64,000 bases of DNA from a virus. Its lineage: Duplodnaviria > Caudoviricetes. The position numbers were made by a program, and so were the translations under genes. Shown here piece after piece: positions 2,902-34,496 of this stretch (position 1 is the stretch's first letter; every line of letters begins with the position of its first letter). Where the stretch lies: IMG/VR virus record IMGVR_UViG_3300005686_000008; one strand, 5' to 3'. The notes under the pieces are model-generated. The model saw only the letters and a list, made by a program, of their open reading frames with translations. It was not told the origin of the DNA and made no database searches.

Positions 2902-3395
2902 TGTCAAAGCTTAGAAGAGGCTTCGTCGAGCCTCCTGAAATCCTCGTTATCCTCGCTATCATCTGCCTACTCATTGGTATCCTCATACCAGCAATAGGTA
3001 AAGCCAGAGAAGCTGTTCGAAGGAATGCCGCCGCACAACCCCAAAGCATCTCCCAAGAAGAAAAAGATAGACTGCAAAAAGATGGCGAACTATCTGCCAG
3101 AGAACGAGCTGAAATCGCTAGAAAACAAAATGAGGCAGACTCTAGAGAAAATGAACAATCCCTCCTTAACCGAATCCGACAAGAAGAACAAACTGAACTC
3201 CAAATCCAACAAGAATACGCTAGCCAACTCCAACCCCTTTCCTTTATAGTCTCTAACTGGCAACTCAATAGAAAAGAAAATCTTAAAGTATTCGTTCTCT
3301 ATGATATCCAAAATAAACAGGAATATATCATTGTCCAAAATGTTTATAACCCCGAAGTTATGACCATTACCCCGAGAATCAAAAATGACCACTGA
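2901..3395 (+). CDS. prepilin-like N-terminal protein, paralogous C-terminus to 2614..2901
   Basis: RRGF...EILVILAIICLLIGILIPAIGKAREA; both proteins end in QEYII...ITPR. Confidence 0.75.
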   Translation: MSKLRRGFVEPPEILVILAIICLLIGILIPAIGKAREAVRRNAAAQPQSISQEEKDRLQKDGELSARERAEIARKQNEADSRENEQSLLNRIRQEEQTELQIQQEYASQLQPLSFIVSNWQLNRKENLKVFVLYDIQNKQEYIIVQNVYNPEVMTITPRIKNDH

Positions 3396-3618
3396 TTATG
3401 CAACACTTAAAAAGTCCGTATCAGAACTCCAAACTATCATAGAAGAACATGAACGCTATAAACGAGCGCTCCTCATTATCTCTAGCCCAGTTCCAGCAGC
3501 CCTCTCTCCCCATGATATAGCGCTACATGCCCTCAAGGATTGGCCCTTCCCTGACCCGCCAAAACCCCAACCCAAACCTTGCCGTATCTGCGGAGACCCT
3601 GACTGTAAGAAAGATTAA
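3385..3618 (+). CDS. hypothetical protein
   Basis: packed ORF, C-terminal CxxCxxxxC. Confidence 0.6.
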   Translation: MTTDYATLKKSVSELQTIIEEHERYKRALLIISSPVPAALSPHDIALHALKDWPFPDPPKPQPKPCRICGDPDCKKD

Positions 3619-25522: not shown

Positions 25523-25713
25523 ATATGACATGGCGGCAACTCTTAGAGATTTTGTCCCAAATGCCTAACGAGCGTTTGGATGACAACGTAACCGTCTTCG
25601 TTTGCGGCGAGTTTTTCCCAGTGCTGAGCATAGGTAAGGTTGAGAACGACCAAGACGAAGAGGGCGGCGGAGTCTTGGACGACGGCCATTCCTATCTCAT
25701 CGTTAACGACTAA
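25519..25713 (+). CDS. hypothetical protein
   Basis: GAGG SD, stop in motif. Confidence 0.7.
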   Translation: MNMTWRQLLEILSQMPNERLDDNVTVFVCGEFFPVLSIGKVENDQDEEGGGVLDDGHSYLIVND

Positions 25714-26269: not shown

Positions 26270-26485
26270 ATGATCTACATTGAAAAAGAGCAAGCTTCTC
26301 AGACTTCTGAGGGAGACTTTACCCTTCCCTGGTGGGTTGCGAGATTTCCGGTCAATACATGGCCCGAAAAGGTGGACTTTGATGGGTTCATCTATCGCAT
26401 GGACCAGTTCAGAAGGGACAGCGTTGGAGAGGTTCTGTCTGTCACATACATTTGCGGAGACAAGAAGCTTGTTGTTACAAGTTAG
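26270..26485 (+). CDS. hypothetical protein
   Basis: packed ORF. Confidence 0.6.
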   Translation: MIYIEKEQASQTSEGDFTLPWWVARFPVNTWPEKVDFDGFIYRMDQFRRDSVGEVLSVTYICGDKKLVVTS

Positions 26486-26522
26486 GACAGACTAAACTTT
26501 TTGAGCAGCATTGGACAAAGCA

Positions 26523-26735
26523 ATGAGCGAGAAAATCAAAAAGGTTCTCTTGACGGATGAGGAGCGGCGGATTAAAGTTGAGGAGGCTATCCGCTTTTTT
26601 CAGTCAAGCAAGAAGACTGAACAAGACCTCTATAACCTCATCAGTAATCTTACAGCAATCTACAACGATAGCGTCCCGGGCGGTCGAGAGATGGATTTTA
26701 TCTTGAGTTGGGTTGCGAGTTTCCCTGACAACTAA
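26523..26735 (+). CDS. hypothetical protein
   Basis: between two motifs. Confidence 0.6.
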   Translation: MSEKIKKVLLTDEERRIKVEEAIRFFQSSKKTEQDLYNLISNLTAIYNDSVPGGREMDFILSWVASFPDN

Positions 26736-26776
26736 ACTTTTAGACTTGGTAGCTCAGTTGGTAGAGCAGCGGCCTT

Positions 26777-26848
26777 GAAGACGTAGCTCAGCGGTAGAGC
26801 AGTGGACTTTTAATCCATTGGCCGAGGGTTCAAATCCCTCCGTCTTCA
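26777..26848 (+). tRNA. tRNA-Lys(TTT)
   Basis: GAAGACG/CGTCTTC, GTGGA-CTTTTAA-TCCAT. Confidence 0.92.
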
Positions 26849-26901
26849 TTAAAAAGAAGGATTCTTATATAGACCGACAGAATACATTTCTGGAGGTGTA
26901 T

Positions 26902-27330
26902 ATGAATCCAAAAGGAAAAGGCGAAAAAGCTCAGTTGATAGTAATGGGAGAGTTTGCGAAACTTGACATTCCGGTTTTGGTTCCGCTAAGCGATAACCTA
27001 CCATTTGACTTTGTTGCCGTAATAAACGGTAATCTCAAAAAGGTGCAGGTCAAGTCAAGCGAAGGCGTTCAGAGAACAGGATCAAGAGAATTCAAACTTC
27101 GCAAGACAAACTGGTACAAAAAGACTCACAAGGGATATACAGAGCAAGACTGCGACCTAATAATCTGCTACGATCACGAAACGAATGATCTGTATGTCCT
27201 AAAACCTGAGCATTTTATTGGCGCAAAAAGTTTTGCCATCAGGAAAGAAAAGGCTAAAAACGGTCAAACCAAAGGACTAAACTTTCACGAGGATTTTGTT
27301 CTCACGAAGGAAAGGTTAGAGCAGGTATGA
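26902..27330 (+). CDS. PD-(D/E)XK endonuclease, I-Ssp6803I / group I intron-associated type
   Basis: KGKGE...PFDFV...KVQVKS...Y...CD pattern; GGAGG SD. Confidence 0.8.
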   Translation: MNPKGKGEKAQLIVMGEFAKLDIPVLVPLSDNLPFDFVAVINGNLKKVQVKSSEGVQRTGSREFKLRKTNWYKKTHKGYTEQDCDLIICYDHETNDLYVLKPEHFIGAKSFAIRKEKAKNGQTKGLNFHEDFVLTKERLEQV

Positions 27331-27917
27331 AGAAGATTGTTCTTTTTGTTTTTTCTTTTCTTTGCCTTACTAATGCAGGGTGTCATTATCCAACCGTTGC
27401 AGAGCAATGGGAGAATGATCCTCGAATGAAAGAGGCCGCAGAAAAAGCAAAGCAAGAACAATCTCAGTGGGAAAAAGAAAGAATTGAAAGAGAAGACGGT
27501 TTTGCGAAGTTCCAAGCGCAAATGGATAAACTTCGAGAAGCTGAAAAAAAGAGACAAGAGATCGACAATAGGAAAATCTCTCGTAAAGCAATCAAAGCAA
27601 TTGATCTTTACATTGCTTTTCTGGAAAAGCACGAAAACCCGACAGATGATGAGGTTTACATTTCGCCGGAATGTCTCACTTGGTGGGGACAAGTAAAAAA
27701 AGGCATGAGCGAAGAGCGATTGCTTGCAGAAATCAATTATTATCGAGAACTTCATTCTTTTATTGAAAGTGGAGTTGATGAGAATTGTTTTCTTGCTCAT
27801 ATGGAATACCTCCGCCTCACTTTGGGGTATCTCGATTCAAGCAAAGTTACGGTGCAGGGGTATTTCAGAAAAGACGGAACATATGTTAGTCCTCATTTTA
27901 GATCACGACCAAAGTAA
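27327..27917 (+). CDS. putative lipoprotein
   Basis: signal ending NAG-C; C-terminal VQGYFRKDGTYVSPHFRS motif. Confidence 0.7.
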   Translation: MKKIVLFVFSFLCLTNAGCHYPTVAEQWENDPRMKEAAEKAKQEQSQWEKERIEREDGFAKFQAQMDKLREAEKKRQEIDNRKISRKAIKAIDLYIAFLEKHENPTDDEVYISPECLTWWGQVKKGMSEERLLAEINYYRELHSFIESGVDENCFLAHMEYLRLTLGYLDSSKVTVQGYFRKDGTYVSPHFRSRPK

Positions 27918-27955
27918 GCCGTTGGTCGCGGGTTCGAGTCCCGCCCGGGTCATTT

Positions 27956-28252
27956 ATGAACAACGATAAAGTTGAGCAGATTTTCGCGGAAGAGGTAGAA
28001 GACATCTGCAAGCAACTGCGCGAAAAGCTCAAAGGTCGTCGTTCAAAGTCTTCTCATGGAGTCATTCATATTACCATCAATCCTTTTGGAGGAGAGGAGA
28101 TATGGAACTTCGGAGAGCCGAATATCCATACAACGAGAATTGATGTTCAAATTGGAGGAATGAGTCGCCGAGAAGAAGTTGGCTCCTTCAAAAATATGGA
28201 TGAGGCTTTTTCTGCGATAAAAAAAGTTGCGCAGATAATTGGTCTTATCTGA
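27956..28252 (+). CDS. hypothetical protein
   Basis: ORF. Confidence 0.6.
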   Translation: MNNDKVEQIFAEEVEDICKQLREKLKGRRSKSSHGVIHITINPFGGEEIWNFGEPNIHTTRIDVQIGGMSRREEVGSFKNMDEAFSAIKKVAQIIGLI

Positions 28253-28283
28253 AGACTAAACTTTTTACGGAAGGTTGAAGGCT

Positions 28284-28532
28284 ATGGACCTCAAGCAACT
28301 GATTTTCGAGAAGGATGGCAGCCGGATGACCGTCTCAAGGACGGAGGGCGGCTTCTTGTTTGAGACGAGCAAGAGCAAGTTCATCCGCAGGCATGGCGAA
28401 TCAATCGAGTTCCTCACGAGTTCGGCTTGCGAGAGCGACCCTGATTTCGCCACAGCATCAGAGCAGTTGAAGAACTCTCATCGGGGGATTCTGAATACGG
28501 CTTATGCTGGTATGTTGAACATGCTGTCATGA
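28284..28532 (+). CDS. hypothetical protein
   Basis: ATG 30 nt after motif. Confidence 0.7.
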   Translation: MDLKQLIFEKDGSRMTVSRTEGGFLFETSKSKFIRRHGESIEFLTSSACESDPDFATASEQLKNSHRGILNTAYAGMLNMLS

Positions 28533-34354: not shown

Positions 34355-34496
34355 GCCGACATAGTTTATCCTGGTTAGAACAGCAATGTTTGACTCAAGT
34401 AGGAGCTAGCGCAGTTCTGAAAAGTAGTCAAACCGAGCCTTGGCGCAAAGGCGGGAAAATTGAAAGAAGGAGGTTCGATCCCTCCTGTCGGCACCA
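34355..34496 (+). ncRNA. enlarged tRNA-like RNA with the anticodon loop replaced by a branched domain; encoded CCA
   Basis: GCCGACA/TGTCGGC-ACCA, D arm, GGAGG-TTCGATC-CCTCC; terminator 34505-34530. Confidence 0.75.

Follow-up and report, generated by a model that had tools for sequence, protein, structure and literature searches.

In a virus record of IMG/VR (IMGVR_UViG_3300005686_000008; Duplodnaviria, Caudoviricetes; 370,652 bp, estimated completeness 73%), from which a stretch of 64,000 nucleotides (nt), hereafter the window, was analyzed, we found a PD-(D/E)XK nuclease gene of the PF11645 family and a complete tRNA-Lys(UUU) gene lying together inside the anticodon loop of another, interrupted tRNA gene. 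The locus has the appearance of a cassette, consisting of the nuclease gene, a permanently linked tRNA-Lys(UUU), hereafter the passenger, and a swappable cargo slot, which would have entered the anticodon loop of a resident tRNA-Lys(UUU) gene. We consider it likely that the nuclease is a free-standing enzyme of the homing type, tied to a tRNA-Lys allele immune to it, which has entered the very site that it targets, and that the locus probably represents intronless homing with a built-in replacement tRNA.

The two halves of the interrupted gene together contain the parts of one tRNA. In the 5′ half, the acceptor strand GACTTGG is followed by a canonical D arm, the anticodon-stem strand GCGGC and the loop nucleotides C32-U33-U34 (CTT), while the 3′ half consists of the loop nucleotides U36-A37-A38 (TAA), the stem strand GCCGT, a variable loop TGGTC, the T arm, the acceptor strand CCGGGTC and the discriminator A. 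Across an insert of 1138 bp, the halves pair at 7/7 positions of the acceptor stem (two G-U), 4/4 of the D stem, 5/5 of the anticodon stem (one G-U) and 5/5 of the T stem, and this split gene was not called by ARAGORN in intron mode. The passenger begins at the base directly after the 5′ half, matches the Rfam tRNA model with 79.7 bits (E 2e-17), and is the sole intact tRNA-Lys that ARAGORN reported in the 370-kb record. Downstream of it follow the nuclease gene and a second open reading frame (ORF2), whose start overlaps the end of the nuclease gene by ATGA and whose TAA stop codon is at the same time the loop TAA, the first triplet of the 3′ half. A first-pass annotation of the bare sequence had described this order, namely a 5′ half, a complete tRNA-Lys(TTT), a PD-(D/E)XK nuclease gene and a lipoprotein-like gene, with the matching 3′ half 1.14 kb on and its TAA doubling as the stop of the cargo gene, and every one of these elements was recovered where it had been placed. 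Homologous 5′ halves are present at the related loci L007, L025, L029, L033, L030 and L037/38. The arrangement is not due to chance, since seven additional distinct loci, all of other metagenomes, show the same nesting.

The nuclease scored 82.1 bits with PF11645 (PDDEXK_5), whose cut-off is 26.1, over profile positions 1-136 of 138 (E 5e-23), and a PF11645 nuclease was recovered too when the phage's own genome was searched. It was further aligned over residues 4-111 with the homing endonuclease I-Ssp6803I (chain 2OST_A, E 4e-9), with matching PFDFV/YDLV and VQVKSS segments, and among 14 homologues the catalytic core is conserved, D36 being nearly invariant and Q49-V50-K51 invariant. The I-Ssp6803I-type identity that had been proposed at first, together with a search by the PDDEXK_5 profile as its check, is thus borne out by both matches and by the retained D36...Q49-V-K51 motif. 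In PHROG, the protein was assigned to phrog_5018, a family without an assigned function.

Splicing by a ribozyme would be an alternative to a spare tRNA, and a group I core together with splicing of the RNA had been named in the first-pass annotation among the findings that would overturn its proposal. Rfam searches of positions 26300-28400 (E ≤ 10) gave no group I intron or other ribozyme, only tRNA and noise, and the 26 related loci, searched at the gathering score, gave tRNAs only; a ribozyme intron of group I or another kind was therefore rejected. Outside the passenger, the non-coding part of the insert amounts to just 53 nt and ORF2 is wholly different between relatives, so that there is no room for a conserved ribozyme core. 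Moreover, restoration of the loop in L007 and L029 demands an insert ending in A rather than in the terminal G of group I introns, and in place of a fixed splice site we found an insertion point that varies (nucleotides 32, 34 and 38) and, in the window, a rejoined loop of 6 nt.

The identity of the split gene was deduced from its relatives. When rejoined, the loop of the window reads CTTTAA (6 nt) or, with the G ahead of the junction retained, CTTGTAA, exactly as in the first-pass annotation, which had regarded the former as Lys-like minus one base and the latter as Thr. In L007 and L029, the left piece ends with CTT and the right piece begins with T-TAA, and in L030 the right piece holds TTTTAA, so that precise excision gives CTTTTAA at each of these loci; all three rejoined genes were called tRNA-Lys(UUU) by ARAGORN. 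In L037/38, the whole CTTTTAA loop lies in the 5′ piece. Intact tRNA-Lys(UUU) genes with the T arm and acceptor of the L007-type split gene occur in other phages (L039, L041), and among 115 distinct tRNAs the nearest neighbours of every rejoined gene were tRNA-Lys(UUU), in a set that is biased by having been fetched partly with pieces of the split genes themselves. Because relatives restore CTTTTAA and the nearest intact relatives are Lys(UUU), the split gene of the window was identified as tRNA-Lys(UUU), the same isoacceptor as its passenger, and its 6-nt loop (CTT plus TAA) as a one-base scar. The Lys-like side of the earlier suggestion therefore stands, while tRNA-Thr(UGU) was rejected, the body being nearest to tRNA-Lys(UUU); the Thr anticodon is an artefact and stems from the final G of the last sense codon in ORF2.

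Homologues were gathered as 13 proteins (43-92% identity) with their contigs, and as relatives from viral contigs and metagenomes. In the homologues from metagenomes and viral contigs (36-92% identity), a tRNA-Lys(UUU) gene lies about 15-70 nt upstream of the nuclease gene, except at L052, which is without an upstream tRNA-Lys, and at L048, whose contig starts inside the upstream tRNA and leaves its anticodon unseen. This linkage extends to AT-rich phages in which TAG is recoded. The nuclease gene is found outside any intron or intein and linked to tRNA-Lys(UUU), its presumed target, as would be expected of a free-standing homing gene. At about half of the loci, the pair of tRNA-Lys and nuclease gene is nested inside a split tRNA-Lys: both halves were seen in the window, L025-27, L007, L029, L033/34, L030/31 and L037/38/L045, a single half in L032, L048, L049 and L052, and no half in L028, L035/36, L043/44, L046/47, L050, L051 and L008-L022. 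More distant homologues (about 30% identity) were examined in four cultured phages, three of which carry the gene in a tRNA cluster and two directly after a tRNA: it lies 24 nt after tRNA-Asn in Salmonella phage PM10 (L058), directly after tRNA-Arg in Synechococcus phage Sf-FR1 (L059), and after a short open reading frame within the tRNA cluster of Pectobacterium phage My1 (L056), and no tRNA is annotated close to it in Enterococcus phage EFP01. My1, PM10 and Sf-FR1 are possible laboratory models for the nuclease family.

Some of these relatives show further peculiarities. The nuclease genes of My1 and Sf-FR1 overlap the next tRNA gene. The AT-rich IMG/VR contigs L008-L022 (94-192 kb; match at 3001-3408) use TAG as a sense codon in the nuclease gene, carry a tRNA with a UUA anticodon, and have the gene in an array of tRNA-Arg(UCU), tRNA-Lys(UUU), nuclease, tRNA-Pro and two tRNA-Tyr; the copy in L022 is apparently frameshifted. 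At L046:1682-2558 and L047:2288-3164, a homologue of 46% identity lies in the array tRNA-Lys(UUU), tRNA-Lys(UUU), nuclease, tRNA-Lys(CUU), and the first of these Lys genes is unusual in its loop, CTTTTAC, as well as in its D and T arms.

Comparison of the nested loci revealed that the insertion follows nucleotide 32 in L030, 34 in the window, L025, L007/29 and L033, and 38 in L037/38, that is, at least three points, all inside the 7-nt loop, whose centre (nucleotide 35) is also the centre of the inverted repeat of the stem-loop. The right junctions differ too (AAG/TAA, CAT/TAA, GAG/TAA, TGA/TTT and TTT/TTTAA, the slash marking the joint), and in four configurations the last open reading frame of the insert stops on the loop TAA, namely three unrelated ORF2s (window, L007 and L030) and the nuclease gene of L033. 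Such varied insertion points and right junctions would be the expected trace of repeated break repair at one cut site. The junctions themselves may reflect joining at short microhomologies, CTT on the left and the stop-codon TAA on the right, which would also account for the missing base in the loop of the window.

Sharp boundaries of identity were found in three pairs of loci. Between L037 and L038, identity is 100% over a tract that runs from the anticodon stem in the 5′ half as far as nucleotide 66 in the 3′ half, and falls to 75-95% in the upstream flanks, the downstream flanks being unrelated. The module of L007 and that of L029 are about 100% identical, their flanks being unrelated upstream and of 80-90% identity downstream, and the likeness of the window and L025 is confined to the part from the 5′ half through the nuclease gene. 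Presence is also patchy, in that the syntenic relative L024 has neither tRNA nor cassette between the same flanking genes, and split and free states are intermixed in one well-supported clade of the nuclease tree. Together, the patchy presence and the sharp boundaries are the signature of lateral transfer. In addition, the split tRNA of L037/L038 (2322-2973) is identical at 61/73 positions, including the whole T arm, to the passenger of L007 (2872-2944), which belongs to the L007/L028-type cassette; what was a passenger in one type of cassette may thus have ended as the victim of a different type. The passengers of L037 and L032 have unusual T loops (TGCAAGT and TGCAATT) along with anticodon stems known from split genes of other loci. 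The near-identical module common to L007 and L029 also contains an element of about 90 nt between the promoter-like motif described below and the split tRNA (L007:2740-2827 and its equivalent in L029), which could be a 15-codon open reading frame or a small RNA and folds no better than shuffled sequences (z −1.4).

The mechanism that we infer from these comparisons would begin when the nuclease recognizes sensitive alleles of tRNA-Lys(UUU) by the near-palindromic DNA of their anticodon stem-loop and cuts them in the loop. The break would then be repaired from a cassette-bearing genome, and the cassette would be copied in, either replacing the tRNA or, as in the window, landing at the break by way of the microhomologies. 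The interrupted gene would be dead as a decoder, and the passenger, whose anticodon stem is GUGGA/UCCAU as against GCGGC/GCCGU in the split gene, is presumed to remain uncut; the phage would lose nothing, because the cassette supplies tRNA-Lys(UUU). As homology arms, the halves would serve further homing into intact tRNA-Lys genes, and their outer parts would in this way stay tRNA-like. Intron-less homing, with a tRNA copy instead of splicing to make good the damage, had been the proposal of the first-pass annotation, and it is supported by the lack of a ribozyme at the loci searched, by the passenger being the sole intact tRNA-Lys, and by the signature of lateral transfer.

The positions of all features of the locus are given in the table, which includes two copies of a promoter-like motif, RRCTAAACTT. 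The + strand of the window has 68 copies of this motif (for example at 25708, 26490, 26730, 27275, 28254, 28543, 28860 and 29713) and the − strand none; counted from the first base of a copy, a start codon most often follows at 30 nt. The copy that precedes the locus sits 3 nt upstream of the 5′ half, and from it the transcript is predicted to start near 26760, inside the 5′ half and 17 nt ahead of the passenger. The second copy, GACTAAACTT, encodes GLNF in the conserved 3′ end of the nuclease gene, 52 nt upstream of the ORF2 start, and L007 shows the same motif with the same spacing; the copy could drive whichever gene occupies the cargo slot. A tRNA-shaped gene at 34355-34496 starts exactly 30 nt after another GACTAAACTT motif and has a large insert replacing its anticodon loop, making it a second interrupted tRNA-like gene in this phage.

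Features of the split tRNA-Lys locus in the window
Feature	Positions	Strand	Basis
Promoter-like motif AACTAAACTT	26730..26739	+	RRCTAAACTT match; putative function
5′ half (nt 1-34) of split tRNA-Lys(UUU)	26743..26776	+	pairing to the 3′ half (7/7, 4/4, 5/5)
Embedded complete tRNA-Lys(UUU), passenger	26777..26848	+	Rfam tRNA; ARAGORN
Nuclease 5′ untranslated region with hairpin	26849..26901	+	consensus structure over 10 loci; putative regulatory role
PD-(D/E)XK nuclease, 142 amino acids, putative free-standing homing endonuclease	26902..27330	+	PF11645, PDB 2OST, phrog_5018
Second promoter-like motif GACTAAACTT	27275..27284	+	within the 3′ end of the nuclease gene; putative function
Cargo ORF2, 196 amino acids	27327..27917	+	signal peptide, lipobox-like NAGC; no family
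3′ half (nt 36-73) of split tRNA-Lys	27915..27952	+	pairs with the 5′ half

The leader of the nuclease gene, 53 nt long and conserved, can fold into a hairpin in which ACC is paired to the GGU within the ribosome-binding site GGAGGU. In a consensus over 10 loci (window, L007, L025, L028, L030, L032, L033, L035, L037 and L043), it has 10 pairs, of which 2, in the inner helix, show compensatory changes, and the hairpin looks like a translational restraint of the nuclease. Downstream, the cargo slot is variable: the product of ORF2 in the window belongs to no family of Pfam or PHROG and carries at its N-terminus a signal peptide with a lipobox-like NAGC at the end, the ORF2s of L007, L028, L030 and L032 are unrelated, and L025, L033 and L037 have none. 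The C-terminus of ORF2 in the window (27855-27914) and the N-terminal part of ORF2 in L030 (L030:2943-3020) have a 25-residue motif in common, GY(F/I)RKDGT.V..H.RS.P (60% identity, E 1e-5), the two proteins being otherwise unrelated.

In all eight versions of the split gene, pairing is complete in the acceptor (7/7), D (4/4) and T (5/5) stems despite differing sequences, and decay runs from the inside outwards, the anticodon stem keeping 4/5 pairs in L007 and L033 and 2-3/5 in L037/38 with the outer stems intact, and the loop not being restorable in the window (6 nt), L033 or L025 (where the 3′ side is TTT). The intact outer stems would be the result of repeated homing into intact tRNA-Lys genes, with the recipient supplying the outer arms, and much of the apparent covariation in the acceptor stem is a change of C and U opposite G, which pairs either way. 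Several observations nevertheless weigh against homing into a gene that has lost its function. The halves are kept better than would be expected of a plain relic, with D, T and variable loops almost invariant; differences in the stems keep pairing down to 66% nuclease identity (for example 6-67, 31-39, 49-65 and 50-64 between the window and L007); and selection on an RNA function of the halves would leave the same pattern as repeated homing. The passengers of L032 and L037 carry an anticodon stem (GCGGC or ACGGA) known from split genes, so that immunity by way of the anticodon stem is not a simple rule. The phage also encodes a full-length RtcB (PF01139, E 7e-105; G000:C1:300593-301720, − strand, locus L042), the single RNA ligase detected in its record. 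Lastly, the uninterrupted allele that the first-pass annotation had suggested looking for in related phages was not found: at the syntenic site of the close relative L024 there is no tRNA at all, a pattern for the rejoined allele of the window matched only unrelated Lys, Ile and Arg tRNAs, the exact T arm and acceptor of the window gave no match, and the contigs of four DNA runs returned only the source assembly and chance matches of other tRNAs. One apparent joint in these contigs had 18 other letters between the two sides and was discarded as another tRNA. No run of RNA was among the public runs listed as containing the sequence.

Three other explanations of the locus were weighed in this light. 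The split tRNA-Lys might still be working, if its long precursor formed a cloverleaf from which RNase P and RNase Z of the host excised the passenger and, after trimming by another nuclease, the RtcB of the phage resealed the loop. The perfect acceptor, D and T stems with their compensatory changes in all eight versions, the canonical CTTTTAA that precise excision yields in L007, L029 and L030, and the RtcB gene would fit this, as would the start of the passenger right after U34 in the window and L025, where RNase P would leave a ...CUU-3′OH end. However, RNase P and RNase Z leave 3′-OH and 5′-phosphate ends, and RtcB does not join such ends; an EndA-type splicing endonuclease (PF01974) is absent from the phage record (73% complete) with archaeal controls positive, and the phage genome gave no match to the T4 Rnl1 family in a search whose control was blank. 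Across seven lineages, neither a bulge-helix-bulge nor a conserved exon-intron pairing was found at the junctions, which have solely CTT/GAA on the left and TAA on the right in common, and CTT could pair with AAG in the window, though in neither L007 nor L030. The insertion point varies by lineage, the anticodon stem of L037/38 is destroyed, the loop cannot be restored in L033 or L025 and would in the window be of 6 nt or put a Thr anticodon on a Lys body, the motif spacing places the transcript start inside the 5′ half, and a second tRNA-Lys(UUU) would not be needed. We therefore regard a working split tRNA as very improbable, and give just as little credit to its narrower form, in which the gene would function at least where CTTTTAA is restorable (L007, L029, L030), with the embedded tRNA as a guide for cutting by RNase P and RNase Z and a phage ligase such as RtcB closing the loop; if true, a bacterial virus would for the first time be shown to splice a tRNA by a protein-only pathway, and a tRNA would belong to the intron.

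Non-decoding halves could instead serve the RNA of the cassette, the ends of a transcript of about 1.2 kb forming a tRNA-like top half of acceptor, T and D arms that recruits RNase P, RNase Z or the CCA-adding enzyme and so protects or processes the mRNA of nuclease and cargo. The perfect top stems beside a decaying anticodon arm would agree with such a role, and so would the movement of the L007/L029 module as one unit with both halves included; yet within the same clade, free cassettes that lack the halves are frequent (L028, L035, L043), the predicted transcript start of the window falls inside the 5′ half, and refreshment from intact homing targets would explain the pattern of the outer stems equally well, which makes this role unlikely in our judgement. 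A further step down in probability, we place the possibility that the nuclease has nothing to do with homing and that tRNA-Lys and nuclease form an accessory module shuffled among phages by ordinary recombination at repeated promoter motifs, for which the position in a tRNA gene is incidental. tRNA-Lys(UUU) is a classic target of host anticodon nucleases, and the module might, for example, combine a supply of tRNA-Lys against them with a nuclease of another role; RRCTAAACTT brackets the modules and could be a recombination point, and PHROG 5018 is without an assigned function. From motif-mediated shuffling, however, one would not expect three or more independent positions of insertion that all lie exactly in the anticodon loop of one and the same isoacceptor, the identity tract of L037/L038 ends within the tRNA halves rather than at the motifs, and the sole characterised member of the family is a homing enzyme that targets a tRNA anticodon region. 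Intronless homing with a replacement tRNA thus remains the reading that we favor.

Several known systems resemble the cassette in part. I-Ssp6803I is a PD-(D/E)XK homing endonuclease encoded in the group I intron of the Synechocystis tRNA-fMet gene (PDB 2OST; Bonocora and Shub 2001), and has in common with the present nuclease the PF11645 family, an element placed in a tRNA anticodon loop and, in all likelihood, anticodon stem-loop DNA as the target. It differs in that the cassette has no group I ribozyme and hence no repair by splicing, that a second tRNA of the same isoacceptor travels with the nuclease, and that the presumed target is tRNA-Lys(UUU) of phages rather than tRNA-fMet of a cyanobacterium. 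T4 SegB, a free-standing GIY-YIG homing endonuclease which lies between genes of a tRNA cluster and recognizes the T-psi-C motif (PMC2330249), is similar in being free-standing among phage tRNA genes, in presumably cutting tRNA-gene DNA of genomes without the nuclease, and in spreading together with neighbouring tRNA genes and being patchy among relatives; in contrast, the present enzyme is of the PD-(D/E)XK type and tied to one isoacceptor, and about half of its loci are nested in a copy of the presumed target, which is destroyed and replaced by the passenger.

Lak megaphages have ‘enigmatic’ tRNA introns, including one of tRNA-Thr(TGT) that possibly encodes a tRNA (PMC6784885, Fig. 4, Table S6), and they likewise combine an interrupted anticodon loop of a phage tRNA and tRNA-like features with the lack of a known ribozyme. 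When the sequences of Table S6 were compared, the Lak inserts proved to be 80-115 nt long, to lie from nucleotide 37 onwards (after the anticodon), to start with ‘tacaa...’ and to hold a mini T arm and no protein gene, whereas the insert of the window has 1138 bp, lies at 34/35, and contains a full tRNA with nuclease and cargo genes. With phages and islands that integrate into tRNA genes, such as Haemophilus phage HP1, whose attP contains part of a tRNA-Lys gene and turned up as a sequence match, the cassette shares the principle that the disrupting element brings the sequence that keeps a functional tRNA copy. Those elements use an integrase, duplicate the 3′ part only and rebuild the original gene, while the cassette has no integrase, carries a whole separate tRNA gene and leaves the old gene broken. 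In the literature, we found no description of a nuclease cassette with a complete spare tRNA nested in a gene of the same isoacceptor, nor of a systematic linkage between PF11645 and tRNA-Lys.

To our knowledge, homing endonucleases have been thought to persist in essential genes solely by way of self-splicing introns or inteins, or else to lie between genes. The locus and its relatives would represent a third solution, in which the element sits amid an essential RNA gene and brings a complete spare copy. They also reveal, within the I-Ssp6803I family, a whole branch of phage nucleases with ties to tRNA genes, having a subfamily at Lys(UUU) and distant members at Asn or Arg, and make the PF11645 phage nucleases candidates for new nucleases of natural specificity for tRNA genes, for which the independent insertion scars within nucleotides 32-38 would provide a natural map of the probable cleavage site. 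Homing of this kind could explain why tRNA genes are turned over and duplicated in the genomes of large phages. Where annotations of huge phages list a ‘tRNA with intron’, some of the cases may have the same explanation, as finders in eukaryote mode would report a tRNA-Thr(TGT) with an intron at this locus.

Beyond the locus, the phage record contains 25 tRNA genes grouped by amino acid, including seven Leu, two Trp, four Glu and three Arg. A tRNA with a CUA anticodon at C1:363188-363261 was called Pyl by ARAGORN, and its anticodon suggests an amber suppressor.

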